Below, in pieces: positions 9,274 to 28,060 of a DNA stretch of 64,000 bases. The DNA lies in sequence record PZ445446.1, one strand, 5' to 3'. Origin of the DNA: a phage. The notes under the pieces are model-generated. The model saw only the letters and a list, made by a program, of their open reading frames with translations, made no database searches and was not told where the DNA came from. Within the stretch, counting starts at the first letter, position 1; each line of letters starts with the position of its first letter. Both the position numbers and the translations under genes were made by a program.

Positions 9274-9356
9274 CAAATACCTATTGTAATTTACAGAAGG
9301 GGATGCTAAAATAGTGTCTCCTTCTATGTTGTTCAAATAAAATCGGAGATTCCATA

Positions 9357-10948: not shown

Positions 10949-10963
10949 CATATAGTTAACATA

Positions 10964-10991
10964 GCCCTGCCCGAAAGGGTGGGGCATTTTT
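10964..10991 (+). terminator. intrinsic terminator (same hairpin as 818..845)
   Basis: GCCCTGCCCGAAAGGGTGGGGC then ATTTTT, directly after SSB-like gene. Confidence 0.6.
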
Positions 10992-13371: not shown

Positions 13372-13704
13372 ATGGTAACATTAGAAAGACGTAAAGCTAT
13401 TGCCGCCACACTGGCAGACATCTTTTGGGATTGTAATTTAAAATCTACCCGAAATTGTGGCGCATCTGTAGATGTATTATTCCCACGGCCTACTATTGTT
13501 GCAATGGGCAACCTTCTTGATGTGGTATATGGAGCATGGGACAAGGAAGGTGGATTCTATATCTGGCAACCTGACTACGGGACTTGGAAAGAGGTTAGTG
13601 GTTCTACGGACTTCACTCCTGCAGTGGCTAAAATGGATGGCTGGAAAATCTATGTCGGTAACGACATGGAACTGAAAGGCGAAATTGTTTACTGGTTACC
13701 TTAA
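13372..13704 (+). CDS. hypothetical protein
   Basis: ORF track 110 aa. Confidence 0.5.
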   Translation: MVTLERRKAIAATLADIFWDCNLKSTRNCGASVDVLFPRPTIVAMGNLLDVVYGAWDKEGGFYIWQPDYGTWKEVSGSTDFTPAVAKMDGWKIYVGNDMELKGEIVYWLP

Positions 13705-14489: not shown

Positions 14490-14797
14490 TATTTTAAGTT
14501 ATCAGATTGCCAGAGATCAGGAGGATTTCTAAAATGGATTTCCTCCTTTTGATATTTTACCTACCAGGATATTTTAAAATCCTTAGAAAATCAGAAAATG
14601 GATCGAAAACTAAAATGGATTTTTCAGAGCAGGCACGACGAGATGAACCACTCATCCTATCGTCTGCACCATATTCCAGACCACCATTACAGATTTCCCG
14701 CACATGCTCACACCCTTCTACTAGAACTTCCCCCACTTACCCTTGACCTTTTATAGTAATAATCCAACCACTACCTTGAAGTTGTGGCGCAGCTTTC

Positions 14798-14990
14798 CAA
14801 GTACTCGATCTGTTTTTCGTTTCAAAGATTGAATTTTCTGAAAATTTTTCTCGATAAATTTCTCAGTACTCGATCTGTTTTTCGTTTTCTGAATCGGATT
14901 TTCTGGAAATCGTTCCGGCTCTCGACCTGAAATTTTTGGGGACGAAATCGATTTTTCGTTTTCAGAAATGGATTTTTAAAATTTCTATAT
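14798..14990. repeat. about three imperfect tandem copies of a ~66-bp unit (iteron-like)
   Basis: AGTACTCGATCTGTTTTTCGTTT perfect at 14800-14823 and 14865-14888; degenerate third copy; AAAATGGATTT recurs nearby. Confidence 0.6.
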
Positions 14991-15117
14991 GGGAATATTT
15001 TAGTGGATACTATTTTATAGGAAATTGTTACGGAGGATAATTAGCGTGCTAATTAAATTTATTAAATGCGAGGAGTTCTCATTTAGAATTTTGAATGATA
15101 ATCATTCTCGTTTGCAG

Positions 15118-15165
15118 AATAACGGGCAGGCCCGGTGATTGTCTCCCGGCCCCTACTGCCCCGGC
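15118..15165 (+). repeat. GC-rich structured element copy A
   Basis: GGGCAGGCCCGGTGATTGTCTCCCGG...; homologous to 15255 and inverted copy at 24225. Confidence 0.5.
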
Positions 15166-15254
15166 TTGTTATTATAGTAACACACAGGACAAAGAAAGCA
15201 AGAAGTTTTTGCATAAATTTTTAGACGATAATGATAATCGTTCTCATTTCATGC

Positions 15255-15300
15255 AGCGCCCATCCCCGGTGGTTGTCTCCCCCGTCACCGGTGCCTGCCG
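15255..15300 (+). repeat. GC-rich structured element copy B
   Basis: CCCCGGTGGTTGTCTCCCCCGTCACCGGTGCCTGCCG; internal CCGGTG/CACCGG stem. Confidence 0.5.
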
Positions 15301-15353
15301 TCCTTTCGATAGGTATATTTTGCCACCTGGCGGGGCCGCTGTCAACACTTTTC

Positions 15354-15367
15354 AAAAAAAAAAAAAA
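15354..15367 (+). repeat. A14 homopolymer tract
   Basis: 14 consecutive A in non-coding region. Confidence 0.7.
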
Positions 15368-15509
15368 TTCTAACCTGATGCGCTGACCGCTGCAACCTGG
15401 CGGGGCCAGCCTGGCAGGGCCTAACTGACCAGGTAGGAGAGAATGAAGGCTTGCAAACCTGGTGGGCCTATGCTATAGGATAGGTAACAATTGAAGAGGA
15501 GGTACAAAA

Positions 15510-15646
15510 ATGGAAGGTAATATGATCCCCCTGGTTGAAAAGGCTATGGCGGGAGCGTTGGAACATAAAGAAGAGTACGAAAAAATGATGGTTAACCTGG
15601 CAGGGGCGGCGGCTGGAGAATTCTACCCAAAAAATAATTTTAACTA
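15510..15646 (+). CDS. small hypothetical protein (45 aa)
   Basis: GAGGAGG RBS 6 nt before ATG; below track cutoff; read by eye. Confidence 0.35.
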
Positions 15647-15650
15647 ATGG

Positions 15651-15679
15651 TTGACAGCTCGGACAGTTCTTGTTATTCT
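15651..15679 (+). promoter_or_regulatory. sigma70-like promoter candidate
   Basis: TTGACA 15651-15656, 17-bp spacer, TATTCT. Confidence 0.4.
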
Positions 15680-15732
15680 TATCCTCACAAGGTGAACAAC
15701 ACCACACCAATTAACAGAGAGGATAAAAAATC

Positions 15733-15930
15733 ATGAACGCCTACGGAATTAAAGTACGTCGCAACACTCGCCAGGTGGTCACCAATCAAGTGATTTGCCG
15801 GGTGGATGTAACCATCAACAACGGGCAAGGCCTTTATAAATTTCGTCGCGGTCATAGCTATACCCTGCAACAGCTTAACCGTTGCGCCCTGACAAAAGGT
15901 CAGATCAACCACTGGTTTAATAAAAAATAA
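15733..15930 (+). CDS. hypothetical protein
   Basis: ORF track 65 aa; leader GAGAGGATAAAAAATCATG. Confidence 0.55.
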   Translation: MNAYGIKVRRNTRQVVTNQVICRVDVTINNGQGLYKFRRGHSYTLQQLNRCALTKGQINHWFNKK

Positions 15931-15932
15931 TG

Positions 15933-15961
15933 TTGACATATGGTCTGACACAAAATACACT
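15933..15961 (+). promoter_or_regulatory. sigma70-like promoter candidate
   Basis: TTGACA 15933-15938, 17-bp spacer, TACACT. Confidence 0.4.
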
Positions 15962-15993
15962 GAAATCACAAAAGACACTAAGAGGATAAAATC

Positions 15994-16392
15994 ATGAAAA
16001 CCACTACCTTTAATTTTGATAATGCGGACTTTTCTTTTTCTGATGTCAAGAACTGCCGCCGTGATCGTGGATTTTACAAGGCTTATAATCTGGTGGGCCT
16101 GGACGATGACAATAATTTGCACGAAGTAGCTGAGATCCGGTATTATGCCGCCGCCAGTGGTAACACTCACTACTGCGTGTTTTGGATTCACGACAACAAG
16201 AACAATAAGTACGGTTATACTGGCGGCAAGGCGAGCGGTCACGGTTACGATAAAGCTAACGCAGCACTTGAGAGCGCATTAAATGCTATGGGGATCACTG
16301 CCGACGGCTGGATCTACGAAGAAGAGTTTTTGTCGGCACTTGCTGACCACCTGGGCTATAAAAAGCACATTGTGACATGCGCCCACGAATAA
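15994..16392 (+). CDS. hypothetical protein
   Basis: ORF track 132 aa; leader AGAGGATAAAATCATG. Confidence 0.55.
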   Translation: MKTTTFNFDNADFSFSDVKNCRRDRGFYKAYNLVGLDDDNNLHEVAEIRYYAAASGNTHYCVFWIHDNKNNKYGYTGGKASGHGYDKANAALESALNAMGITADGWIYEEEFLSALADHLGYKKHIVTCAHE

Positions 16393-16398
16393 AAATCA

Positions 16399-16427
16399 TT
16401 GACACGCTGCAAAATTTAAGTAAACTA
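16399..16427 (+). promoter_or_regulatory. sigma70-like promoter candidate
   Basis: TTGACA 16399-16404; followed by leader hairpin GGCGGGAATGTTTCCCGCC. Confidence 0.4.
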
Positions 16428-16475
16428 GACACAAAAGGCGGGAATGTTTCCCGCCAGCACAAAGGAAAAAAGATC

Positions 16476-16871
16476 ATGAATAAGAACGTACGCCGCATCA
16501 TGAACGAACTGGCAAACGATGAAAAAATTATTGACATGCATTTAGTCAACATTTGCCGCCGTTGTGTAACATATAACAACCGCGCCGCAAAAGCGCGTGA
16601 GATGAACGCAAAAGGCACCTTAAAGCCCTTTCAGGTGGTTGTAAAATCTATAACCAGTGCAGCAGGCCAGGCGCATGACCACAACAACGGGAGCACTAAT
16701 ATTGATCCGTCTTACGTAATGAAACGGATCCGGACTTGCAAGAATAAAGAGCAGGTGTATAATGTCATAGACTGGTTGGATTCTATGGGCGATGTGGTTT
16801 ACAATAGGTTTTCTGCAGCTATCGAGATCCAGCTTGACAGGTTGGACGGTAAAGTACTGAAAACTTACTAA
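16476..16871 (+). CDS. hypothetical protein
   Basis: Track ORF 16377..16871 trimmed to ATG 16476 after AAAGGAAAAAAGATC leader. Confidence 0.5.
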   Translation: MNKNVRRIMNELANDEKIIDMHLVNICRRCVTYNNRAAKAREMNAKGTLKPFQVVVKSITSAAGQAHDHNNGSTNIDPSYVMKRIRTCKNKEQVYNVIDWLDSMGDVVYNRFSAAIEIQLDRLDGKVLKTY

Positions 16872-16918
16872 GATTATTTTTAGATGGCCTTGACTTCAGG
16901 GCCATCAATAAAGTAAAC
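16872..16918 (+). promoter_or_regulatory. repeated palindromic TTGAC cassette, copy 1
   Basis: GATTATTTTTAGATGGCCTTGACTTCAGGGCCATCAATAAAGTAAAC directly after stop codon; ATGGCC/GGCCAT inverted repeat around TTGACT. Confidence 0.5.
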
Positions 16919-16951
16919 TAATCCCAGTTAAGCGAAAAAGGAGGCTTGAAG

Positions 16952-17071
16952 ATGAGCACTACACGCCAACACACAAAGGTAACGATTATCGTTTGCATCA
17001 TTGGTTACATCCTGGCGCAAATGTTGATGGGTAGCGCCAATGATTTCGCAAAATTTTTCTTAGACTTTTAA
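16952..17071 (+). CDS. small hydrophobic peptide (39 aa)
   Basis: Strong AAAAAGGAGG RBS 5 nt before ATG; hydrophobic core IIVCIIGYILAQMLM; read by eye. Confidence 0.45.
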   Translation: MSTTRQHTKVTIIVCIIGYILAQMLMGSANDFAKFFLDF

Positions 17072-17072
17072 T

Positions 17073-17100
17073 TGACAAGCTAACTTAAATCAGTATAATA
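17073..17100 (+). promoter_or_regulatory. sigma70 consensus-like promoter
   Basis: TTGACA 17073-17078, 15/16-bp spacer, TATAAT 17094-17099. Confidence 0.5.
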
Positions 17101-17151
17101 CTAAGCACATAAACGGGAAAACTTCCCAGAACACCAAAAGGAGAAAACATT

Positions 17152-17502
17152 ATGAATACTTCCATCACTATGACCGCCGAAGAAAAAGCCCTGCAGATCG
17201 CCGCTCTGAAAAAACAGATTGCAGAACTTGAAGACAAGATCGACAATTTTGAAATCGACGAAGACAAGTACGACGATAAATATGATGAATGGTTAGACGA
17301 GATCTACGGCGAAATTATGATCGGAAACATTTCTTTTCTTCCGTCGCGTATCCTCAAGGAGCTAGATCCTATCGCTTACCGCTGCGGATTTAGCGACTAC
17401 ATCGACAGCCTGGATATTGAGGACGATGAAGAATACCAGGAATTACAGACAGAGTTAGAAGAAGCAAAAGAAGAGCTTGCAGAACTGGAAGAAAACGAGT
17501 AA
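17152..17502 (+). CDS. hypothetical acidic coiled-coil protein
   Basis: ORF track 116 aa; AAAGGAGAAAACATTATG leader; very acidic. Confidence 0.55.
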   Translation: MNTSITMTAEEKALQIAALKKQIAELEDKIDNFEIDEDKYDDKYDEWLDEIYGEIMIGNISFLPSRILKELDPIAYRCGFSDYIDSLDIEDDEEYQELQTELEEAKEELAELEENE

Positions 17503-17550
17503 GATTATTTTTAGATGGCCTTGACTCCAGGGCCATCAATAAAGTAAACT
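17500..17550 (+). promoter_or_regulatory. repeated palindromic TTGAC cassette, copy 2
   Basis: Near-identical to 16872..16918; directly after stop codon. Confidence 0.5.
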
Positions 17551-17591
17551 TTATACTGTTAACACTGAACTAATGCATAGGAGTTAAAACC

Positions 17592-17837
17592 ATGGCAGCA
17601 CTAATCACCAAATATTATGCCCCTACCAACACCAAAAGCGCCCGTATCATGGTAAAAGGCTTCGGACGTAAAAAGGTGTACACCTGGGATTATGCCTTAG
17701 ACACGGAAGACAACTACACCAACGCGATGACCGATTTTATTAATGATCTGAACACGCGGATCTTGACAAATTATAAAATTACCGATATTGCCTATATAGG
17801 GGAAGGCGGGATCTGTTTTGTCGGTATCGTCAAATAA
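17592..17837 (+). CDS. hypothetical protein
   Basis: ORF track 81 aa; AGGAG RBS. Confidence 0.55.
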   Translation: MAALITKYYAPTNTKSARIMVKGFGRKKVYTWDYALDTEDNYTNAMTDFINDLNTRILTNYKITDIAYIGEGGICFVGIVK

Positions 17838-17839
17838 GC

Positions 17840-17885
17840 TGTTTTTTCGGTGGTCCTGGTAGCAGGGCCATCTATAAAGATAGTT
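17840..17885 (+). promoter_or_regulatory. variant of repeated palindromic cassette
   Basis: TTTTTTCGGTGGTCCTGGTAGCAGGGCCATCTATAAAGATAG; shares CAGGGCCATC..ATAAAG core. Confidence 0.35.
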
Positions 17886-17912
17886 TATCAATACAATGAA
17901 AGGAGAAAGTAC

Positions 17913-18266
17913 ATGATCAGCGGGGCAAGTTTTATTATTGGCGCTATTGCTACGGCTTTAATTGTAAACAAGATCCAATCTAAAAACGAAAAAGATAGCA
18001 ACGCCCTTACAGAATACCCGTTTTGGGTATTCAACGACAATGAAGACTATATTATCAAGTACAAGAATGAGAAGGGCGACCAGGTAACACCGCGACCGAT
18101 CCCGGCTTACAAGATGCAAGAAACACTATACCGCCTAAAGGCTGGAGGCGCAAAAATCGTAGACTTTTGGGGATACGATCACACAGATCAGGAAGTTATA
18201 AAGCGCCGTATCCGGGCTATTCAGGCCAATATTGAAGTTAGCAAGGGGGGAATATATGAAGATTAA
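17913..18266 (+). CDS. hypothetical protein with N-terminal TM segment
   Basis: Track ORF trimmed to ATG 17913 after AAAGGAGAAAG. Confidence 0.5.
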   Translation: MISGASFIIGAIATALIVNKIQSKNEKDSNALTEYPFWVFNDNEDYIIKYKNEKGDQVTPRPIPAYKMQETLYRLKAGGAKIVDFWGYDHTDQEVIKRRIRAIQANIEVSKGGIYED

Positions 18267-18453
18267 TTTTGAGAAGATTGTAAAGCGATCTCATGCTTCC
18301 GAAGAGCTGCCGGAACGCCGCCAGCGCAACAATAAACTGAATAAGCCAAAAAGATTTGGGAAGATCTGGCGGAATCATTATGATCGCAAATTACCGGGCC
18401 TGCTTTTGGAACGTGAACGACAGGCGGAACGATACCGCCACAAAGGCAAATAA
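18256..18453 (+). CDS. small basic protein
   Basis: Track ORF trimmed to ATG 18256 after AAGGGGGG; Arg/Lys-rich. Confidence 0.4.
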   Translation: MKINFEKIVKRSHASEELPERRQRNNKLNKPKRFGKIWRNHYDRKLPGLLLERERQAERYRHKGK

Positions 18454-18460
18454 CAACCAA

Positions 18461-18490
18461 CGCCCCGCCATTGTGCGGGGCTTTTTATTT
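18461..18490 (+). terminator. intrinsic terminator
   Basis: CCCCGCCATTGTGCGGGG hairpin then CTTTTTATTT. Confidence 0.6.
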
Positions 18491-18634
18491 CTATCCTACA
18501 AATAGCGCCCCTGGTTGGCCCTGTAAGCGCCAAAAAGGCCCCACCTATGCAATCGCCCCCCTTTAACCTGAAAACATCGCTTAGGGCCGTTTTATGGCGT
18601 TAAAAATATCATTGACAGTGATTTTATTTAAAGC

Positions 18635-18662
18635 TTGACATCTTAAACAGGTTAGCTATACT
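18635..18662 (+). promoter_or_regulatory. sigma70-like promoter candidate
   Basis: TTGACA 18635-18640, 16-bp spacer, TATACT; second TTGACA at 18612. Confidence 0.45.
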
Positions 18663-18694
18663 AACCACATCAAAGAGAGAAAGGAGTAAACGCC

Positions 18695-18943
18695 ATGCGT
18701 AAATTAAAAAATTTTGATAAAGTTGATGTTGTCCTGAATAATTTTTACTACTGCAACAACAAGGCCATTTGGTGGCGTGATAGTTCCACCGATAAAGTCA
18801 AGGCGCGCTTTCTCCAGGGGCACTGGCAAGGCCGCCCAGTGATTAAAATCATGGGGCAATTGGTAGCGTTTAAAAATTGCCGCCGTGTTGATGACGTTGA
18901 AGAGATCTTGAATATTTTACGCCACAATAATTTAAAAAAATAG
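18695..18943 (+). CDS. hypothetical protein
   Basis: ORF track 82 aa; GAGAAAGGAG leader. Confidence 0.55.
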   Translation: MRKLKNFDKVDVVLNNFYYCNNKAIWWRDSSTDKVKARFLQGHWQGRPVIKIMGQLVAFKNCRRVDDVEEILNILRHNNLKK

Positions 18944-18945
18944 TG

Positions 18946-18973
18946 TTGACAAGTAAATCTCAATAAGTATACT
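18946..18973 (+). promoter_or_regulatory. sigma70-like promoter candidate
   Basis: TTGACA 18946-18951, 16-bp spacer, TATACT; followed by leader hairpin GGCGGGAAGTTTTCCCGCC. Confidence 0.45.
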
Positions 18974-19030
18974 TAAGCACACAGGCGGGAAGTTTTCCCG
19001 CCACTAACAAAGAAAATAGGAGAAAATATC

Positions 19031-19654
19031 ATGACCACCGTTAACATTACCACAGGTTGCAATTTATCTTTCGACGTGCTGACCGATGAACAAAAAGAAA
19101 AAGCTATTGAAATGGTCCGCGAAAGAGAAGAACACAGCGGAGAGGATTTTTTCGCAGAAAGTGTAATTGAATATTATAAAGAACAAGTTTTTCCAGAGTA
19201 CGGCCTTGAAGATACCGATGTACATTGGTCCGGCTTTTGGTGTCAAGGCGATGGCGCGTCAATTAGTGCTGAAAATGTAGACTTAGAGAAATTCTTGCGT
19301 AAAGTCAAGGCCCTGACCAAGTTCCGATCAATTCGTCACTTGTTCGGAACAATGCACGATGGCGAACTATCAGCCAGTGTTGAACGCGACAAGTACAGCC
19401 ATTACAGCCATGAAAACACTGTAAGCGGATATATTGATACTACCTGGCTAGATCTGACCGCAAAACAAGAAAATAAAGTAGAAGATCTGGAAGAGCTGAT
19501 CACCGAGACGGTACGGGAGCTATCCCGCAAGGTTTATGTAGACCTGGAGGAGGCCTATCTTGAACAGTTTACTACCGAAAACCTGATCGGCCTTATTGAA
19601 GCCAATGATTGGCGGTTTGATGTGGATGAATATGGAGAAATGAGTTTTTCATAA
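19031..19654 (+). CDS. hypothetical acidic protein
   Basis: ORF track 207 aa; GGAGAAAATATCATG leader. Confidence 0.6.
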   Translation: MTTVNITTGCNLSFDVLTDEQKEKAIEMVREREEHSGEDFFAESVIEYYKEQVFPEYGLEDTDVHWSGFWCQGDGASISAENVDLEKFLRKVKALTKFRSIRHLFGTMHDGELSASVERDKYSHYSHENTVSGYIDTTWLDLTAKQENKVEDLEELITETVRELSRKVYVDLEEAYLEQFTTENLIGLIEANDWRFDVDEYGEMSFS

Positions 19655-19745
19655 ATAAAGTGTTGCAATAATCTAAAAACCTGCTATATTAAAACTTAAG
19701 GGGGAGAGATGACTTGCCCCCACACAAAACAAAGAGGAAAACATC

Positions 19746-20126
19746 ATGAAAAACACTACTAAAGCTATTGACACCGTTATGTTTAACCTGGTTACATTCC
19801 GTGAAGATATGAAAGATCTTCCACGTGAAACAGTGTGCGACCATATCGAAAACTATCGCAAACTAATCAAAGAGTTGCCTTTAAAACGTGACCAGTACGC
19901 GGCTAACGCTATGCTTAACGCCATGATCAAGAAAATGATTCAGTGCGATTTGACTTTAGCTTATGATTATGCAGGTGGTCGTTTTGCAGTATACAATCAG
20001 CCCGTGCCTGGTATGAGCACCACAGAAGAATTGCACGCGTTAAATCTAAAACAAGACGTATGGGATAACATGCCCCGCGTGGTGGTGTGGGCAGAAAGCG
20101 GAAAGATTTACGGCGATAATTTTTAA
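19746..20126 (+). CDS. hypothetical protein
   Basis: ORF track 126 aa; AAAGAGGAAAACATCATG leader after hairpin. Confidence 0.6.
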   Translation: MKNTTKAIDTVMFNLVTFREDMKDLPRETVCDHIENYRKLIKELPLKRDQYAANAMLNAMIKKMIQCDLTLAYDYAGGRFAVYNQPVPGMSTTEELHALNLKQDVWDNMPRVVVWAESGKIYGDNF

Positions 20127-20190
20127 TCAGGTAACAGGCGGCATATTTGCCGCCTTATTGTTAAACAGAACTGCAAAAGAGGTACATAGA

Positions 20191-20562
20191 ATGGAATTTA
20201 TTATTTTGGCTGTAGTAGTTGCCTTGTTCAACGCCTGGATCGCTGGCAAGATGGGTAGATCCGCTTTTCTATGGTTTGTTATATCTATTTTCCTGGGAGT
20301 GGTTGCAACTATTGTATTGGTTATCCTTGCAATTGTTGACAAGGGGAATAATAGAAAGGGTAAAGTATTTTCAGACCTGTACGACGCTCAAACGTTTGTC
20401 AACGCCTATTATAGTGATCTTCCAGTCTCCCTACGCTGCAGCCTGGCACAACAGGTTTTTGATGAGGCTAAAACCAGAGACCAAGCCCATGAGATATGTT
20501 TAACTGAGGCGGATCGCCTATTTGAGAGGAATAGAAAATATGTGGACCAGCCGTTTAAATAA
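20191..20562 (+). CDS. hypothetical membrane protein (two predicted TM helices)
   Basis: Track ORF trimmed to ATG 20191 after AAAAGAGG; hydrophobic stretches. Confidence 0.5.
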   Translation: MEFIILAVVVALFNAWIAGKMGRSAFLWFVISIFLGVVATIVLVILAIVDKGNNRKGKVFSDLYDAQTFVNAYYSDLPVSLRCSLAQQVFDEAKTRDQAHEICLTEADRLFERNRKYVDQPFK

Positions 20563-20781
20563 TGCCACGTTAATTAACCCCTTTAGTGAAGATTTGAAGC
20601 CAGCCGCCTGGCGGGATGGATTCAATAACGAAAGCTTTATTTTCAGGCCTGATCTTAAGGAATTTTATAACAATGGATCGAACAACGACAGAGATAATTT
20701 TTCTTGTAATGTGCGTGGTGATAATACTCCTGGGGGCCATTGCAAACCACGTCACTGCTAACAGGAGGAAAGGGGGAGACG

Positions 20782-20901
20782 ATGACACCCAAGGATAAGC
20801 CCCGCACCGATAAGGCGCGCCGTGTTATGGTATGGCTTGAGATCATCGCCCTTGAAATATTGTTAGGCGTAGGGATGTATTTTATCGCTGTAAGTAACTG
20901 A
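20782..20901 (+). CDS. small membrane peptide (39 aa)
   Basis: AGGAGGAAAGGGGG RBS; C-terminal hydrophobic segment; read by eye. Confidence 0.3.
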   Translation: MTPKDKPRTDKARRVMVWLEIIALEILLGVGMYFIAVSN

Positions 20902-21040
20902 TAACGGCCCCGATCCCTGGGGCCTAACTTTTCAAATTTTTTCTCCCTGAGTGTTGCAATCCGATCCAGAATATGGATAATAACAATCAACGGGGAGACA
21001 CTCCCCACCGCATAGACAAAGTTCCAAAAGGAGAAACAAA

Positions 21041-21241
21041 ATGAGCAACAATATCCGCGTTATTAACTTCAAAAAAGAAGAAAAAATTGCCGTGCTGATT
21101 GACGGTCAAGAAATCTTTAAAGGTGATTATGAAGATCATCAAACGGCGATTAGTATCACTCGCGTGATTGGTTACCATAATTTTTACCCTCAAGGCGCTG
21201 AGGCAGCAGTAAAACGAATTAAAGAGATTGTAGGCCTGTAA
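21041..21241 (+). CDS. hypothetical protein
   Basis: ORF track 66 aa; AAAAGGAGAAACAAAATG leader after hairpin. Confidence 0.55.
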   Translation: MSNNIRVINFKKEEKIAVLIDGQEIFKGDYEDHQTAISITRVIGYHNFYPQGAEAAVKRIKEIVGL

Positions 21242-21290
21242 AATTTATTTTTAGATGGCCTTGACTCCAGGGCCATCAATAAAGTAAATT
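21241..21290 (+). promoter_or_regulatory. repeated palindromic TTGAC cassette, copy 3
   Basis: AATTTATTTTTAGATGGCCTTGACTCCAGGGCCATCAATAAAGTAAAT directly after stop codon. Confidence 0.5.
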
Positions 21291-21332
21291 TAAACCCTGT
21301 TAAAATAATCAGTGCAAAAAGGAGTAATGATC

Positions 21333-21632
21333 ATGTTTATCCAGGCTAATAATCTTTATTTCTTTGATGGTCAGATCGTAGACGGCGTGGAGGTGGAAAT
21401 CACCGGGTGCCCTGGCGGTCAGGTTATGACTTTTCGGAATAATGCCTTTGATGATTCTCATATCGTTATGAGAATGGAAGTTAGTAAGCTGGATGACAAG
21501 AAAACACTTATCGACTATTCCGTCAAAGATCATCCAGACTACCACATGATCTATGGTGATTTGTGCATTGTTGACCGTGACAAGGTGGGCGGCATTGTGA
21601 TCGCTATTGTGAACGATGTTTTCTCAAACTAA
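21333..21632 (+). CDS. hypothetical protein
   Basis: Track ORF trimmed to ATG 21333, 8 nt after AAAAAGGAG. Confidence 0.5.
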   Translation: MFIQANNLYFFDGQIVDGVEVEITGCPGGQVMTFRNNAFDDSHIVMRMEVSKLDDKKTLIDYSVKDHPDYHMIYGDLCIVDRDKVGGIVIAIVNDVFSN

Positions 21633-21649
21633 TTTCAGCAGGTGATTTT

Positions 21650-22000
21650 ATGAAAGTAAAACTATATTACCTTAATGAGCTTAACCCCCTTGCCCAGGTC
21701 CGCGCCCTGGCTAATACCTTGATTTGTGAGAAATCTGTATATTGTGTTGAGCTTAACGCCATGCGTGAACGTCTCAAAGGTGGTTACTTTGACATCCATG
21801 CTGCAATCAACGGCCTGAATATGGAATTTATCCGCTTACGTAACAGCCGCCAGAATCTGGCAAGAATGGAACAAGATCCGGCCCACCTTCGTAAGCTGGT
21901 TATTGAAAATCATCTGATGTTTAATGCCGATGGTGATTATTACCATTTTCACCGCAAACGCTGGTACCGTGGCGGCAATACAGGCAAGAATGCAAAATAA
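21650..22000 (+). CDS. hypothetical protein
   Basis: ORF track 116 aa. Confidence 0.5.
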   Translation: MKVKLYYLNELNPLAQVRALANTLICEKSVYCVELNAMRERLKGGYFDIHAAINGLNMEFIRLRNSRQNLARMEQDPAHLRKLVIENHLMFNADGDYYHFHRKRWYRGGNTGKNAK

Positions 22001-22036
22001 GGCCCCAGGCAGGGCCTGCAGCGATATAATCACATA

Positions 22037-22070
22037 AAGGCTATGCGGTTGCATGGCCTTTATTATTTTA
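22037..22070 (+). terminator. intrinsic terminator candidate
   Basis: GGCTATGCGGTTGCATGGCC hairpin followed by TTTATTATTTT. Confidence 0.45.
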
Positions 22071-22201
22071 GCGTTACAGCGGCCCCAAGGCGCTTAAAAA
22101 ATTTTTAAAGAAGTACTTGCATCAAGTCCTACAATATGGATAATAGGACGTGTCAGGGGGGCGGCCCCCAATCATTAACCGGATAGATAGGAGTTAAAAT
22201 C

Positions 22202-22486
22202 ATGGCTATTGTCACCGTTGGCGATGTAGTGGAAATGGAAGCAAAATACTTAAAAGCGGGTATGCATATCCTACGGAATGATCAAGAATTGTTATTAACG
22301 ATGGTAGACTATAATCCCGGCCAGGATTATCCAAGCATCGACTACTTTTTTGAGTATGTTGATGAAGAATTGAAAGAGGATGAGGCTTATCAGGGTGAAT
22401 TCTGCAATTTCTTTTGCCCTGATGAGGTTGTAAAAGTTATCTATCAACCTGGAGTACCTTTCCCGCTGCACGCTATCAATAAATAA
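22202..22486 (+). CDS. hypothetical protein
   Basis: ORF track 94 aa; AGGAGTTAAAATCATG leader. Confidence 0.55.
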   Translation: MAIVTVGDVVEMEAKYLKAGMHILRNDQELLLTMVDYNPGQDYPSIDYFFEYVDEELKEDEAYQGEFCNFFCPDEVVKVIYQPGVPFPLHAINK

Positions 22487-22540
22487 ACCTGGTGGGGCCG
22501 AAAAGGCCCCAATTATGAAAATAAAGAGAGGTAAATCATC

Positions 22541-22774
22541 ATGATGGAACAAATTAAACGCGCTGAGTCTATTAATGGCAATGTGATCTATTTTGTCAGC
22601 AAAAACGAAAAAGGCGTACCATATGCGGCGGTAATAGTACAACCTGACGGCGATTATTGGTTTACTGTGTACGGCGCTTATTCTTTTGGGCGTCCGGTGC
22701 ATGATAGAATTTTGAAAGTAGCGAACCCTACCGGGAAAAATATTACAGCAGAAAAATTTTTTGAAAATAGTTGA
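22541..22774 (+). CDS. hypothetical protein
   Basis: ORF track 77 aa; AAAGAGAGGTAAATCATCATG leader. Confidence 0.55.
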   Translation: MMEQIKRAESINGNVIYFVSKNEKGVPYAAVIVQPDGDYWFTVYGAYSFGRPVHDRILKVANPTGKNITAEKFFENS

Positions 22775-22798
22775 CATGACCATATAAGACTGTAGAAT
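22771..22798 (+). promoter_or_regulatory. sigma70-like promoter candidate
   Basis: TTGACA 22771-22776, 16-bp spacer, TAGAAT. Confidence 0.45.
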
Positions 22799-22850
22799 AT
22801 AAATCAAAGGGGGCAACAAGCCCCACCAACCACAAAGAGGATAAAAAATC

Positions 22851-23030
22851 ATGGCTATTATTGCAAAGACTGAGATCGTAGGCTTAGATTCTATTCTCCT
22901 CGCATATGAGGAAGCTATAGAAATGTATGTGGTTTCCTATGGTGAATATATCCGTGAATATAAATCTATTGATCTGGCTTTTGAATGTTATATTCGCCAG
23001 GTTAATAAAGCGTACGATGATTATCGTTAA
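22851..23030 (+). CDS. small hypothetical protein (59 aa)
   Basis: Leader AAAGAGGATAAAAAATCATG after GGGGGCAACAAGCCCC hairpin; below track cutoff; read by eye. Confidence 0.4.
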   Translation: MAIIAKTEIVGLDSILLAYEEAIEMYVVSYGEYIREYKSIDLAFECYIRQVNKAYDDYR

Positions 23031-23120
23031 AATAGCTTGACAACAAACAACCATCTAACAAAGCATAATACATAAGGCGGTGGAATGGTCCGCCACCTGG
23101 AACAAGAAGAGGAAAACAAG

Positions 23121-23225
23121 ATGAAACAGAAATTAATTGATGCGGTGATCCTGGTTATTGCCCTGGGTATTGGCCTGATTGCAACCATGTCTAATATGAT
23201 CTTGTCTTCCAACGGTATCGGGTGA
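23121..23225 (+). CDS. small hydrophobic peptide (34 aa)
   Basis: Leader AAGAAGAGGAAAACAAGATG; sequence VILVIALGIGLIATM; read by eye. Confidence 0.35.
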   Translation: MKQKLIDAVILVIALGIGLIATMSNMILSSNGIG

Positions 23226-23234
23226 GGTTGGCAA

Positions 23235-23450
23235 ATGATCACTAACAAAACAGGCAAAACAGAATTTTTACGCAACTTACAGATCGGCAAGCCTGAGATC
23301 TGGTATTGCACTAAAACACCACGTGACGAAATGAAAGACTTCACCGCCACGCTGCAACGGGTAAAGATATCCATCACGCAGAAAAAGGCCTTATTAGTGG
23401 TGGAAGGTGAGATCCCCCAAACCGTTGTTATAGTTGGGCGTACAGCATAG
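23235..23450 (+). CDS. hypothetical protein
   Basis: ORF track 71 aa. Confidence 0.45.
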   Translation: MITNKTGKTEFLRNLQIGKPEIWYCTKTPRDEMKDFTATLQRVKISITQKKALLVVEGEIPQTVVIVGRTA

Positions 23451-23541
23451 TTTAATTTATACCGATACCCGAAAATTAACCAACAAAGCATAAACAGGCG
23501 GTTACCGCCGCCTTAAACGTAGCAGAAAGAGGATAGACACA

Positions 23542-23826
23542 ATGAAAAAGATGATCGCAGTGGTTGCCCTGGTTGTTGGACTTAATGCGCCTGTAATGGC
23601 TAAAGAGCTGGCAAAAGAGGTTAATCTAACGGATATTCATGCCGTCAATCAAATAGGGGTTACTTATCGCTTATGCCTTGCCGCTAAAACTTTTAAGGAC
23701 GGCACGACAGAGTACTACGGATTCGAGGGTATCCGGTGCGGTGAGCTTGCTCGCGACCTTAAGGAAGATCCAGACCTGGAAGATCTGCCCATAACCGTGA
23801 ACGGGAAAACTTACGTAAACCGTTAA
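23542..23826 (+). CDS. hypothetical secreted protein
   Basis: ORF track 94 aa; N-terminal signal-peptide-like MKKMIAVVALVVGLNAPVMA. Confidence 0.55.
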   Translation: MKKMIAVVALVVGLNAPVMAKELAKEVNLTDIHAVNQIGVTYRLCLAAKTFKDGTTEYYGFEGIRCGELARDLKEDPDLEDLPITVNGKTYVNR

Positions 23827-23975
23827 CCATGAGAAAGATAATTATCACCTTGGGGATTGTGGCGGGATCGCTGGCGCTCTTTCCCCTTATGGTTAGATAT
23901 GTGCTGATCAGTATTGTCCTGATAGTCAGTGATCTATTGGAAACGGTTGGCACCTTGTTTTAAAGAGCGGTAAAA

Positions 23976-24167
23976 ATGAATATCGAACAAGTTAGAAAGG
24001 TATTAGCAGTACTGCGTTATCATAATCATAGAAAGGTTATAGACGATCCTGATTATGTTGATTCAAGTCTGGAAGGGGATACACTGCAAGCCATAAGCAA
24101 CATGCAAGAATTGCTAAAGCGCATGACAGAGAAAAACCGACCGGACTACATAGGCGAAAAAATATAA
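23976..24167 (+). CDS. hypothetical protein
   Basis: ORF track 63 aa. Confidence 0.45.
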   Translation: MNIEQVRKVLAVLRYHNHRKVIDDPDYVDSSLEGDTLQAISNMQELLKRMTEKNRPDYIGEKI

Positions 24168-24185
24168 TCCTTATAAACTACAAAA

Positions 24186-24212
24186 CAGGGCTTGCAATGG
24201 TCCTGTTTTTTG
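24186..24212 (+). terminator. intrinsic terminator candidate
   Basis: ACAGG..CCTGT stem followed by TTTTTTG. Confidence 0.4.
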
Positions 24213-24224
24213 TTATACTTGTTT

Positions 24225-24273
24225 CACGGCAGGCACCTGGCGACGGGGGGAGACAATCACCGGGTGTGCCTGC
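24225..24273 (-). repeat. GC-rich structured element copy C (inverted relative to A/B)
   Basis: Reverse complement closely matches 15262..15300; contains GCAGGCAC/GTGCCTGC stem. Confidence 0.5.
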
Positions 24274-24295
24274 TATATAAAAATTATAAAAACCG

Positions 24296-24324
24296 TTGAC
24301 ATCTGCCAGGTGGTGGGGTAGCAT
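24296..24324 (+). promoter_or_regulatory. sigma70-like promoter candidate
   Basis: TTGACA 24296-24301, 17-bp spacer, TAGCAT. Confidence 0.4.
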
Positions 24325-24379
24325 TTATCTCGAAGGGGGCAAAAGCGCCCACACAACAACCGGAAGAGAGGAAAACGCC

Positions 24380-24652
24380 ATGTTAAGCTGGATTAACCAA
24401 GAAGTTGAATCACGTTTTAATGCTATTTGGGATCTCATCGAAAAAGAGGACGGAACATCAAGCCCTTATCTCAATAATCTTGAATTCCATTTCGTGGAAG
24501 CGATGAACGCAGAACATGATCACGAAGGTGGTGCGGATGAATTCGCTAAAGGATATGGCTTCAACAATGCCAACGAAATGATCGAGGCGGTTGTACTCCA
24601 GGCTGAGGAAGATTATCAATTAAAAACGCTTGAATTCTGCCGCCGTAAGTAA
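24380..24652 (+). CDS. hypothetical protein
   Basis: Track ORF 24296..24652 trimmed to ATG 24380 after GAAGAGAGGAAAACGCC leader. Confidence 0.5.
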   Translation: MLSWINQEVESRFNAIWDLIEKEDGTSSPYLNNLEFHFVEAMNAEHDHEGGADEFAKGYGFNNANEMIEAVVLQAEEDYQLKTLEFCRRK

Positions 24653-24712
24653 TAAGATAATGACACGGGCCAAAAGGCCCACTAATCAGAACCGCACAAA
24701 GAGGTAAACATC

Positions 24713-24976
24713 ATGAAACGTCTTGATCAGCTCAAATTAGTTCAATATATGGCTTATCGTGTTCTTGAAGTCCAGAAAGGTAGCAAAAAAGAGGTTTGCG
24801 AGAAAGCTTATAAGATCTTCACTCGCAAAAAAGATGACTGGATGCTGCGCCAGACTAAAAAGGCTGACATCTTGGGGTACCTGGAAGAAGAGATCCGCCT
24901 TGAAGAGCAAGAAGAGATCCGCCGTAGTGAGGCAGATTATCAGGCAGCTTGGGAAAACTGGATGAGCAACAAATAA
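24713..24976 (+). CDS. hypothetical protein
   Basis: ORF track 87 aa; AAAGAGGTAAACATCATG leader after GGGCC..GGCCC hairpin. Confidence 0.55.
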   Translation: MKRLDQLKLVQYMAYRVLEVQKGSKKEVCEKAYKIFTRKKDDWMLRQTKKADILGYLEEEIRLEEQEEIRRSEADYQAAWENWMSNK

Positions 24977-25042
24977 TACAACAAGTTACATGGTCAGGGG
25001 CAATAAAGCCCCTTGATCACATAAAAATTATGCTATCCCTGG

Positions 25043-25071
25043 TTGACAGGGATCGGCAGTTTTGCTATATT
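25043..25071 (+). promoter_or_regulatory. sigma70-like promoter with palindrome around -35
   Basis: TTGACA 25043-25048 inside CCCTGG..CAGGGA inverted repeat; 17-bp spacer; TATATT. Confidence 0.45.
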
Positions 25072-25120
25072 CTTTTTTGAAGGGAAGTTGTAAGAAAATT
25101 AACTAAGAGGTAAAAACACC

Positions 25121-25540
25121 ATGAACATTAAATCTAATAATCCGGCATATAGCTTTGATAACGCTTTTTGTCACGGTCCGGCGGCGAAAGGATTCGAAAT
25201 CGATGGTAAACTAATTATTGTCAATGTTGACGGGGAAGAGGTTGCAGTATATCCGGTGGCAGACGTAAAAAGCCGTTTACAATGCCGCATGGATGTTACC
25301 GCCTATCAGCTTGATCCGGTCCGCATAGTTGCCCTGGTCCTGGAAGAAGAAATTAAAGCCATGCACCATAGCAACAGATTTATTGGTGACGCGCAGGATA
25401 ATATGAAAGTATGCCGCCATAAAGTTAATGAAGTGCTTAAAGAGTACGGCTATAAAGATCTTATGATCAAACGTGAGGAAAAATTCCGCTACCGTAACGA
25501 CCTGGCAAATCGGATTTTTGAAATATACGAATCATTATAA
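25121..25540 (+). CDS. hypothetical protein
   Basis: ORF track 139 aa; last plus-strand gene before convergence zone. Confidence 0.55.
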   Translation: MNIKSNNPAYSFDNAFCHGPAAKGFEIDGKLIIVNVDGEEVAVYPVADVKSRLQCRMDVTAYQLDPVRIVALVLEEEIKAMHHSNRFIGDAQDNMKVCRHKVNEVLKEYGYKDLMIKREEKFRYRNDLANRIFEIYESL

Positions 25541-25560
25541 TTTTTTAACTGAATTATCAA

Positions 25561-25584
25561 GGGGCTTAGGCCCCTTTCTTTTTG
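25561..25584 (+). terminator. intrinsic terminator
   Basis: GGGGCTTAGGCCCC hairpin followed by TTTCTTTTTG. Confidence 0.6.
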
Positions 25585-26189
25585 TCTGCTCTTCTCCTAC
25601 CATAAACGGCCCTACCTGGCAAGTGGAATAATTGACTAGCCATCAATCCCACATACTGTACAAATATACATGGAAAATAACTATTGCATAATTTTTCATT
25701 GTGTGGTAGCAAGTCCATTTTTACCCGTTTTCTCTCCCAAAAGTGCACGTAATGCCGCTATTGCACAAATTTTAACCTGATGCACATCTCCAATATCTTG
25801 TCAACAACTAAAAATCTTTATAAGTCATACACTTACACAGCATCGAAAGCGTGTTCTACGCGAAAAATCGAGTATAACTATAGCCGCCAGATCTCAGAAT
25901 TCACGTACGCACGCCATTCTATAGCCTGCAAAGTATTTATTCCAACCACAGAATAACGGAATAGTCAATACCTGCATAAAATAATTATTCGTGTAAACTG
26001 CATAACATAAATCAGCTCAGGTGTCAACATTTTTCGTAAACAGTCCGAAATTATCACGATGAGCTATCATAAACAGAGAAATATTTAGTCGTCTAATGTT
26101 TACTGTACATTACTATACTGACTGGAATCATTAGATGACTAAGAGAAAGATAAGAAATAATTAATAATGTAATTATTTTACCTGTAACA

Positions 26190-26500
26190 ATAAGGCAACT
26201 ATGCAAACGAATGGCATGGCGCGACGGAGTCGCGACATAATATAAAAGCAGTAACCATCACCCCCGTGATAGTTTGTCTGCAAACTATTAATCAGATCAT
26301 AGTTGCCTTGTATTTAGTTAATCATGACATAACAAGCAAGGCAACTATAGATCTTCTAATAGTTGCCCTGCTTTTATATTATGTCATAGGAACGCCCGAA
26401 GGGGTGACCTAGTCACCTGGTATAGCCAGCGAAAGATTATTAACTTGTCGATTGTTATCTTGTTAATTGTTTTCATGCAAACGAATGGCATGGCTTATCA
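26190..26500. repeat. cluster of inverted and direct repeats in non-coding DNA
   Basis: AAGGCAACTAT at 26192 and 26338 with inverted ATAGTTGCC(T/C)T at 26299 and 26359; 20-bp direct repeat ATGCAAACGAATGGCATGGC at 26201 and 26475. Confidence 0.6.
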
Positions 26501-28060
26501 TCTATGCGTGAACAGTGAGGCATGCAATAGTAACAATTGTTATTGTATCCAGTGTGTTGAGTATGCCCAGTGTGTCACTATTATGTCATATTATGTCACA
26601 GTATGTCAGACAAGTTTTCCTCCTCTTTGTCAAGTGCTGCATGAAAAATTTACAAGCTTGTATGGTAGCATTTTTGCGGCCCTGTTTACATTCAGTGTTG
26701 TATGTATAATCCTTGTTGTGTGGGCGTTTAGACGTCTGGACGGTCAGAAGTTTGCAGGTCAATATCTAATCTATTGGCTGCTAACTATATCCCCCACAAA
26801 TAATAAGAAATATAATTGTTATGTGCGTAAACAGTAACCCATGTTATCAATCCCTGTATGTATCGCCAGTGGTGCGCATAATGGGTATTATGTTAAATTG
26901 CCCGTAATGATAACAGTTCTCACAATGATAGGTATTCTCATTCATCCACACAAAATAGGTTGCAAATGTTGTGCCACTGTGTGAACGGCCTGGCCTATTA
27001 ATTTCTCTCACTGCCTCGATATTTGAGAATTGTTATAAGAATGAGAAGTATTCCCATTCCGTCCGCCTGGCAGCACTCCAGTAGCTACCGGCTCCTGACA
27101 GGGCAGCACTCCTGTAGGTCAGGTCAAAATCGTGGTAGAATTGGGCCTGTTCAGATATTTCTGACTGACTCTTCAGATCTGTGTGGGAAAAGCCAACCTC
27201 TCCGGAGGGGCAGGGGAGGTCAATTAAAAAATTTACGTGGTGTATGAAGCGCTCTTCAGGTAAGGCATGTATTATGGGATGAAACCCTCTTCAGGCAATG
27301 ATATTTGTGGGTGTGATATTTGCTGGAAAGCCAGATATGACGGGACTCCCGGCGGGGATGGGGTAGTACAGACAGGGAAAATATGGGGATGTAGTTGGGT
27401 AAATTGATCAGACAGGTAGAGTATGGAATATGTTACAAGTATGTTAAATAGGGAGGATGAATATCTGCAGGATTTGTGTGTAAAATCAAAGACTTAAGTG
27501 GTGTTGTGGTATTTTCTATAAATAATTCAAGTTTAATAGGTAATATTTGTCTCTATCCACTTTGTGTGGTAAACAGATTCAGATGAAATTGGTTTACAAG
27601 TGTATACATAATATACAAATTAAAGATACAAGAAACCCCCCTCCCCCTTCGGCTACCATTCACCTTTTCCTCTGACTGGTACTTAAACACTTATTCAGAC
27701 TCTTCAGGTTATCACCCATATATCATATGGCAGTGACTGGTGTCCTCCGGCCCCTCTTTCGTCACCCGTCCGCTTCGCCATGCTAATGCCATAGCCAATG
27801 GTTCGGTTGTTCACTCTGTTCACTCAGGTGTATCTCCATACCCCTTCAAACCGAAGAGAACAGAAAACCCGAATTACTCGGTAAAAGAAAAGAGAAGAAC
27901 TTAATTTTATCAGGATAGGCAAGAATGTCAAGGCATGACTGCTCACTAAACAAGCAAACAGTCATGTGTGGAAGGTAAGTGATTGTGGTGGTGGGAAATT
28001 TAGTTGAAAGATGTGTTATAGGTGCGCTTCCAGCACTTTGGCCGGGCAGCTAATTGTGTG

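Follow-up and report, generated by a model that had tools for sequence, protein, structure and literature searches.

Cassettes that join a promoter to a stem-loop are known from the T4-like phages RB49/phi1, PST, and nt-1, where they were named promoter-early stem-loop (PeSL) cassettes (Arbiol et al., 2010, PMC2839356; Comeau et al., 2014, PMC4122927). A PeSL cassette comprises an AT-rich region, a sigma70 promoter, a G/C stem-loop, a Shine-Dalgarno sequence, and an ORFan, and the cassettes lie in hyperplastic regions in which they mediate modular shuffling (PMC2839356, PMC4122927); their stem-loops were originally read as terminators or attenuators (PMC2839356). From cellular genes it is known that RNase E cuts base-paired 5′ ends much more slowly and that 5′ stem-loops stabilise the ompA and papA mRNAs (PMC3997798). 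For phage rV5, promoters P164-P195A have been annotated in Table S4 of the genome paper (Kropinski et al., 2013, PMC3606486). Here, a PeSL-like series of modules is reported from a block at positions 15510-25540 of a 64,000-nucleotide stretch of phage DNA (record PZ445446.1; this whole stretch is the window), in which a sigma70-like promoter, a G-run/C-run hairpin, and a leader recur before one small gene after another. The repeated modules are real and non-random, the feature is well supported and widespread in the rV5-like/phi92-like phage group, and the modules are breakpoints of gene gain, loss, and replacement among relatives.

When 15500-25600 was used in a megablast search, 232 phage records matched, the best being Escherichia phage WalterGehring (Vequintavirus; 96.6 % identity over 100 %), with rV5 and relatives next. 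By this homology the source phage is a Vequintavirus, an rV5-like phage of Escherichia coli. Twenty-three of the 232 records are unannotated and named 'Campylobacter phage' (MG0656xx); those listed are ~94-95 % identical, and these host labels look doubtful. Transfer of the WalterGehring annotation gives a plus-strand DNA polymerase region, then a run of small hypothetical genes, then ~2.5 kb (25.6-28 kb) without annotated genes, followed by minus-strand genes; the block is the distal end of the plus-strand unit. It contains 29 open reading frames (ORFs) with a mean of 89 aa, and 22 % of it is intergenic. In a Pfam scan of 20 block proteins none reached a curated family cut-off, with three weak sub-threshold matches only, and the whole window gave nothing from Rfam at the gathering threshold and nothing from ARAGORN. 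The block had been thought GC-richer than its flanks, which is wrong, as its GC content of 0.424 is below that of the upstream flank (0.442), the downstream flank (0.429), and the window as a whole (0.430). The sole compositional feature to stand out is a raised A>T skew (0.132 vs 0.057).

To count modules, a sigma70-like site was defined by a hexamer score of at least 9/12, a strong hairpin by a stability of -8 kcal/mol or stronger, and a module by a hairpin starting 5-17 nt after the -10. On the plus strand of 15.4-25.6 kb there are 30 sigma70-like sites, several of them reaching 11-12/12 against the consensus, compared with 12.4±3.1 in dinucleotide shuffles and seven on the minus strand. 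Eight distinct promoter and hairpin modules are present on this strand, compared with 0.82±0.97 (maximum 5) in shuffles. Strong hairpins, of -8 to -13 kcal/mol, follow 9 of 19 gene-proximal promoters and 8.8 % of random anchor positions (binomial P 1.3e-5). The proposal of a shared modular leader that coding does not explain holds, and the conserved leader end that had been pointed out, ACAAAGAGGAnAAnATCATG, is a genuine repeat family (families D2 and D3).

Strong hairpins precede the ATGs at 16476, 19031, 19746, 21041, 22202, 22851, 23121, 24380, and 24713, and a weak one precedes that at 17152 (Table 1). The original prediction had named these starts apart from 16476 and 17152, of which the first fits and the second fits weakly. 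Promoter and hairpin are in place as claimed at each of the named starts except 23121, where the hairpin is present but the -35 and -10 lie 21 nt apart. This spacing is 17 nt in the relatives SophiaRose and isim, and the promoter is probably weakened in the source phage; in JLBYU08, C>T and G>A changes at this unit complete the stem. One further start that had been listed, 18695, has no leader hairpin. The inverted repeat that covers its -10, GGTTAGctataCTAACC, was deemed a chance occurrence, and is not conserved in rV5, CarlMeissner, 241Ecol014PP, or phita32. The match to PeSL cassettes, the existence of a second cassette type, and the role of the modules as gene-shuffling breakpoints had all been missed.

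Table 1. Promoter, hairpin, and terminator-like features of the block. Class A, hairpin after the -10; class B, 51-nt repeat with hairpin around the -35. Gap, nucleotides from the -10 to the hairpin; z, folding z score of the leader.
Feature	Positions	Strand	Promoter (-35, spacer, -10)	Gap (nt)	Hairpin	ATG	z	Remarks
Class A	16399..16478	+	TTGACA-16-TAAACT (16399-16426)	10	GGCGGGAAtgtTTCCCGCC (16437-16455, -13.1 kcal/mol)	16476	-3.3	A-rich leader with Shine-Dalgarno; 131 aa ORFan; rV5 promoter P194
Weak class A	17072..17154	+	TTGACA-16-TATAAT (12/12)	15	GGGAAaacTTCCC (17115-17127, -4 kcal/mol)	17152	-1.7	Hairpin invariant across 11 relatives
Class A	18946..19033	+	TTGACA-16-TATACT	10	GGCGGGAAgttTTCCCGCC (18984-19002)	19031	-3.6	207 aa; loop flipped (GTT vs AAC) in 11/11 relatives; rV5 promoter P185
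Class A	19663..19748	+	TTGCAA-16-TATATT (TG-extended)	9	GGGGGAGAGATGACTTGCCCCC (19700-19721)	19746	-3.3	Stems and loops vary among relatives, always a hairpin of -11 to -14 kcal/mol
Class A	20954..21043	+	TTGCAA-16-GATAAT	10	GGGGAGacaCTCCCC (20992-21006)	21041	-3.1	
Class A	22117..22204	+	TTGCAT-16-GATAAT	11	GGGGGgcggCCCCC (22156-22169)	22202	-0.1 only (whole leader)	Ten site variants in window and relatives, each a G-run/C-run hairpin
Class A	22771..22853	+	TTGACA-16-TAGAAT	10-11	GGGGCaacaaGCCCC (22810-22824)	22851	-2.8	
Class A-like	23037..23123	+	TTGACA (23037-23042), CATAAT (23064-23069)		GGCGGTGGaatgGTCCGCCACC (23076-23097)	23121	-2.1	
Class A	24296..24382	+	TTGACA-17-TAGCAT	10	GGGGGCaaaaGCGCCC (24335-24350, one mismatch)	24380	-1.6	rV5 promoter P168
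Class A, weak promoter	24630..24715	+	TTGAAT-17-TAAGAT (8/12)	8	GGGCCaaaaGGCCC (24667-24680)	24713	-2.8	Leader 24681-24716 duplicated around insertions in relatives
Hairpin resembling a promoterless class A unit	23496..23544	+	No recognisable -35		AGGCGGttaccgCCGCCT (23496-23513)	23542		Hairpin 28 nt before ATG
Class B copy 1	16869..16919	+			GATGGCCTTGacttCAGGGCCATC, 10 bp (16883-16906, -17.8 kcal/mol)	16952		51-nt repeat
Class B copy 2	17500..17550	+				17592		98 % identical to copy 1
Class B degenerate copy 3	17835..17885	+	-35 lost		GGTGGTCCTGgtagCAGGGCCATC, kept with G-U pairs	17913		
Class B copy 4	21240..21290	+				21333		90 %
Composite terminator/promoter	24182..24219	+	TTGCAA-16-TATACT		AAAACAGGGCttgcaatgGTCCTGTTTT, TTGCAA in loop			T run
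Intrinsic terminator-like	18462..18481	+						Hairpin and T run; closes sub-unit
Terminator-like	20136-20155	+						
Terminator-like	20906-20924	+						
Terminator-like	22034-22063	+						
Terminator-like	25559-25576	+						
Promoter without leader hairpin	15651..15679	+	TTGACA-17-TATTCT					
Promoter without leader hairpin	15451-15479	+						
Promoter without leader hairpin	15933-15961	+						
Promoter without leader hairpin	18635-18662	+						
Promoter without leader hairpin	25043-25071	+						

The position of the class A hairpin was assessed on 49 distinct hairpins after strong promoters, pooled over the source phage, 11 Vequintavirus relatives, phi92, and phAPEC8. The hairpin starts 9-11 nt after the -10 in 44 of the 49, and exactly 10 nt after it in 27. 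The distance to the ATG is loose, at 13-34 nt, and the hairpin is therefore anchored to the -10 rather than to the start codon. Conservation of position relative to the start codon, by which the original prediction was to be refuted, is thus the wrong anchor for such a test. At sigma70 promoters, transcription starts ~7 nt after the -10. The class A stem would therefore begin at about +3 to +5 and form the 5′ terminus of the gene's own mRNA, with a 5′ tail of 2-5 nt as predicted from promoter spacing alone. Over the eight nucleotides that follow the hairpin, the mean number of T is 0.74 and five or more T occur in 0 of 47 cases; in the absence of a U tract, class A hairpins are not intrinsic terminators on the sense strand. 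Canonical terminator-like sites with T runs stand separately in the block.

Mean AT content is 81 % in the 20 nt before each of ten -35 hexamers and 57 % in the block. The spacer that leads from the hairpin to the Shine-Dalgarno is made up of 61 % A, 24 % C, 7 % G, and 8 % T. Loops measure 3-5 nt in eight of the nine strong hairpins of the window; the ninth is interrupted by an internal bulge, ends in an apical loop of 4 nt, and measures 22 nt overall. When ten class A leaders were folded, z was -2 or lower in seven, and the 5′-proximal hairpin was part of the minimum free energy structure in all ten. Beyond this hairpin they are largely unpaired, with an extra weak downstream helix of 2-4 bp in three of the ten, and the Shine-Dalgarno/start region is open (0.66-0.84 unpaired) both with and without the hairpin. 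No consensus structure emerged when RNAalifold was applied to a MAFFT alignment of 31 modules; this alignment is not structural, because the stems differ in length and register. It was replaced by folding of each sequence and an arm-permutation count, a count that is partly circular as the hairpins were chosen by folding.

Comparison of the 11 relatives shows that the -35 is the most conserved element (diversity 0.012), followed by codon positions 1-2 (0.015) and the -10 (0.038), with stems at 0.065, codon position 3 at 0.078, and loops the most variable at 0.21. Every orthologue retains a stable hairpin at the same place; the stem, the loop, or the length of the G-run often differs, and indels are frequent. 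Loops have been inverted to their reverse complement between relatives at 19031 (GTT/AAC), 16476 (TGT/ACA), and 19746 (GACGT/ACGTC), with the stems unchanged. The flipped loops lie at 18992-18994, 16445-16447, and 19706-19715 of the window, as compared with the relative stretches L001-L013. These flips have the form of a template-switch or cruciform-type mutational signature, and since they recur, they show the palindromes to be active at the DNA level as mutational hot-spots.

The same architecture, in more uniform form, is also present outside the Vequintavirinae, in phi92 (Justusliebigvirus) and phAPEC8 (Phapecoctavirus), both of the subfamily Stephanstirmvirinae. In these phages there is one unit per small gene, comprising TTGACA-16/17-TAnnnT, gTATCACATA, GGGCGGCAATAGTGCCGC, an A/C-rich leader, a Shine-Dalgarno, and the ATG; the modules are near-identical copies, and many of their loops share AATRG. 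In the GenBank record of phAPEC8 (JX561091), the 20-mer GTAGGGCGGCAATGGTGCCG is labelled "putative promoter determined with PHIRE" and lies directly 3′ of a "host dependent promoter"; labelled hairpin 20-mers are found, for example, at 556-575, 937-956, 1787-1806, and 3202-3221 of the phAPEC8 stretch. Since the 20-mer comes immediately after a host-type promoter that is already complete, and can itself fold into a hairpin, a leader element is likelier here than a promoter. The 'PHIRE promoters' are probably transcribed leader hairpins, a misread annotation that can be corrected in the database. A scan of IMG/VR with a narrow pattern (promoter plus GGCGGG-N7-CCCGCC) gave only 10 loci, too few for a distribution; most of them are rV5/phi92-like, and a 98-kb contig contributes two modules.

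A second cassette type is formed by the class B repeat (family D1). Its order, as seen in copy 1, is the stop codon TAA of the preceding gene, a T-rich run, a hairpin with the -35 TTGACT partly in its loop, and the -10 TAAACT. Across relatives the stem is invariant, with variation only in the loop. The terminator-like sites of the block correspond to the terminators t184, t181, t177, and t164 predicted in rV5, and split the block into small units.

Breakpoints were determined from homology between the source phage and the 11 relatives, and the junction sequences were read directly. All of them (16919/17491, 17554/17843, 22776, 23105-23136, 24169/24208, 24681-24716, and 24983/25553) are inside modules, where they fall in a class B repeat, in the -35 of P22851, in a leader/Shine-Dalgarno segment, or in a G/C hairpin. 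ECP32 lacks the pair of genes that class B copies 1 and 2 enclose, and keeps one hybrid repeat; in 241Ecol014PP, the gene between copies 2 and 3 is missing. In FV3 and 241Ecol014PP, homology stops at the -35 of P22851 (22776) and continues into a phi92-type module with a different gene; both also lack the last gene, which is between two GGGGC...GCCCC hairpins (24983/25553). SophiaRose, JLBYU08, isim, rV5, and Mangalyan have insertions with duplicated leader/Shine-Dalgarno/start segments on either side (23105-23136 and 24681-24716), and in four relatives an insertion sits at the terminator/promoter hairpin (24182-24209). Being repeated, the modules act as substrates of homologous recombination for the insertion, deletion, and swapping of cassettes, as the comparison with relatives shows. 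Inserted or swapped cassettes in Vequintavirus relatives carry the phi92/phAPEC8-type module (TAAGAT GTATCACRTA GGGCGGCAATRGTGCCGC) and therefore point to cassette exchange between Vequintavirinae and Stephanstirmvirinae. Such phi92-type cassettes are found in the relative stretches L007 (8395-8475), L011 (9907-9990), L009 (~9302-9356), and L013 (~13381-13447).

Based on these results, the modules are interpreted, with confidence somewhat better than even, as PeSL-like cassettes for early expression and for shuffling, in which a stem-loop at the predicted start of the transcript would probably stabilise short monocistronic mRNAs. The block is a hyperplastic early region of ~29 very small ORFan genes, many of them self-contained expression cassettes. 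A class A cassette consists of an AT-rich element and sigma70 promoter, a stem-loop 9-11 nt past the -10, an A/C-rich open spacer of 13-34 nt, a strong Shine-Dalgarno, and the ATG. The stem-loop, as the presumed 5′ terminus of each cassette's own mRNA, would most likely shield short early messages from 5′-end-dependent decay (RppH, RNase E), and the open leader would keep translation initiation efficient. In class B cassettes, a 10-bp hairpin around the -35 directly follows the upstream stop codon. The repeated modules also mediate cassette insertion, deletion, and swapping by homologous recombination, as proposed for the T4-like PeSLs. Of the shared control or 5′-end stabilisation suggested in the original prediction, it is stabilisation that is ranked first here too, a function deduced from the position of the hairpin, the lack of a U tract, and the open Shine-Dalgarno.

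Several points weigh against a stabilising role. Outside the block, only 3 of 18 strong promoters of the window have such a hairpin, which is therefore no general requirement for mRNAs of this phage. Stems change at a near-neutral rate (0.065 vs 0.078 at third codon positions). A bias towards the sense strand speaks in favour of the role (in a strand-neutral comparison, the plus strand folds better in 30 cases and the other in 15, P 0.04), but it is weak and comes from non-independent sequences. Shared descent of duplicated cassettes may explain part of the constant spacing, most clearly for the phi92-type modules. RppH could still gain access at 5′ tails of the predicted 2-5 nt, and in the literature no 5′-end mapping or mRNA half-life data were found for any rV5-like phage.

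A more specific form of the stabilising role, which is doubtful, is that the stem-loop is a dedicated 'self' mark, a 5′ structural cap that would exempt immediate-early phage mRNAs from host 5′-end decay, perhaps as stimulated by an Srd homologue. T4 Srd stimulates RNase E on host mRNA (PMC4980113) and for rV5 gp11 homology to Srd has been reported as probable (PMC3606486); speculatively, phage messages with a 5′ shield would be spared. If so, any gene gained would immediately be both expressed and protected, as the element travels with its cassette, and the mark would span dozens of early promoters in Vequintavirinae and Stephanstirmvirinae.

It is unlikely that the stem-loops are instead attenuators or terminators that insulate the cassettes from upstream read-through, so that each gene's own promoter sets its expression. 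One RB49/phi1 PeSL stem-loop placed before lacZ cut expression as much as rrnB T1 (PMC2839356), and the block has many promoters in series. The class B hairpins are directly 3′ of stop codons, and one copy keeps its hairpin though the -35 is lost; attenuation fits class B and the composite site at 24182. However, it fits class A poorly, because the hairpin is within the transcript of its own gene, downstream of the start site, where it would attenuate those transcripts too, and because it is followed by no U tract, with canonical T-run terminators standing apart.

Somewhat less probable still is that the inverted repeats act only as DNA, with no RNA role, either as sites bound by a phage or host protein (an operator or recombination factor) or as secondary-structure hot-spots of cassette exchange. 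The loop flips between relatives are what DNA hairpins or template switching would leave, the breakpoints cluster in modules, the class B palindrome encloses the -35 in an operator-like manner, and AATRG is common to many phi92-type loops. Stem sequences are diverse, with 10 different outermost 5-mers at the 5′ stem base among 32 hairpins, and since stems differ so widely between cassettes a single sequence-specific binding protein is disfavoured. In addition, G-U pairs are tolerated on the sense strand (15 vs 5), and recombination needs no strict spacing from the -10.

That the hairpins are functionless hitch-hikers, left over from a single ancestral cassette that multiplied through duplication and recombination, is improbable. 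Near-neutral evolution of stems in orthologues, the lack of a hairpin at most other strong promoters of the source phage, and the near-identity of the phi92-type modules would all be expected of such remnants, but the cassettes of the window keep the 9-11-nt spacing despite unrelated stems and unrelated sequences between -10 and hairpin, a stable hairpin is kept in all orthologues despite frequent indels in loop and G-run, and the architecture persists across two subfamilies. Least probable, and very improbable, is that the hairpin is the target of a phage RNA-binding regulator (a repressor, a boxB/N-type antiterminator, or a nuclease guide) co-ordinating the early cassettes, as variation is greatest in the loop, no regulator emerged as a candidate, and the modules have no shared boxA-like companion motif and do not form lambdoid nut sites (boxA plus boxB), although one module is common to many genes of one temporal class and some stems are boxB-sized (for example GGGGC-AACAA-GCCCC).

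Other elements of the window were observed alongside these modules. A ~50-nt imperfect palindrome has three copies, at 15119-15147 (-), 15247-15283 (-), and 24228-24282 (+), with an invariant core GGGAGACAAYCACCGGG, of which 0 are expected by chance. A sigma70-like promoter in the same sense stands just 5′ of each, and all three are devoid of ORFs. As RNA, the copies fold with -20 to -27 kcal/mol and z = -1.7 to -3.4, with no Rfam match. The core occurs in 1-3 copies in 11 of 11 Vequintavirus relatives and not in the phi92/phAPEC8 stretches examined; it could be part of a small RNA or a protein-binding site. Degenerate tandem repeats of ~65-74 nt (AGTACTCGATCTGTTTTTCGTTT...) are located at 14800-14976, within the gene-poor 14750-15450 just upstream of the block. 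At 767-846, a promoter-like TTGACA-17-TACAAT (767-795) is followed within ~20 nt by the hairpin GGCCCTGCCCGAAAGGGTGGGGC and a T run (-18 to -21 kcal/mol). A second copy of this hairpin is at 10964-10985 (region 10929-10990), and both are terminators predicted in rV5, t213 and t232. A terminator directly after the promoter at 767-846 suggests an attenuator or a very short transcript. Beyond the block, the ~2.5 kb at 25600-28000, between convergent plus- and minus-strand units, carry no annotated genes, and such a 'non-coding' box is marked in the rV5 paper. The isim, EdH4, ECP2303, and C2 records begin 0.2-2 kb from this stretch, so the genome termini may lie there.

Among known systems, the 5′ stabilisers of ompA and papA resemble the class A leaders in having a stable hairpin at or near the 5′ end, followed by an unstructured leader accessible to ribosomes (Emory, Bouvet and Belasco, 1992; reviewed in PMC3997798). 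In contrast to these, the 5′ position here is predicted from promoter spacing, the stabilising effect is deduced, and the element is multiplied over ~10 phage genes rather than serving a single cellular untranslated region. The sigma70 promoters of the block are already listed for rV5 in Table S4, where the leader hairpins go unmentioned, as they do in the paper. The sources searched contained neither RNA-seq nor transcription-start work on Vequintavirus, nor any paper describing leader hairpins in rV5- or phi92-like phages, subscription-only papers being outside the search.

The likeness to PeSL cassettes is closer. In both, AT-rich DNA lies upstream of a consensus sigma70 promoter, which has a stable G-run/C-run stem-loop next to it and is followed by an A/C-rich leader with a Shine-Dalgarno and by a small ORFan, and both are densely repeated in a hyperplastic region, with the indel and replacement breakpoints of close relatives inside the motifs. 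The rV5 record notes that ORF167, the homologue of gene 24380, resembles an RB49 protein; in a tblastn search with the gene 24380 product, RB49 was not among the 40 of 147 matches listed. The systems differ in host lineage, which is Vequintavirus here, with modules also in Stephanstirmvirinae, whereas PeSLs were described in T4-like myoviruses. They also differ in geometry. When the RB49 sequence was read, most stem-loops were between the -35 and -10 (TTGACAGGGGATC...GATCCCCTATAAT) or around the -10, and after the promoter only at ORF207, whereas the dominant hairpin here (class A, ~10 copies) is 9-11 nt past the -10, beyond the expected start and inside the predicted transcript. Only the class B repeat (4 copies, hairpin around the -35) matches the geometry of RB49. 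The terminator function proposed for PeSLs fits the class A position poorly, as no U tract follows, and what the hairpin does would, by this reasoning, also differ.

By sequence comparison the system is closely PeSL-like and no new kind of system, as the cassette logic and the shuffling are known, and the lineage and the position of the dominant hairpin differ. If the proposed role is true, the module would be a portable unit of expression provided by nature, in which promoter, stabilising 5′ hairpin, open leader, and Shine-Dalgarno together make every small early gene autonomous, and its repetition would explain the reshuffling of sets of early host-takeover and anti-defence genes between phages, also across subfamilies. 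The PeSL concept is in this way extended beyond the T4-like phages.

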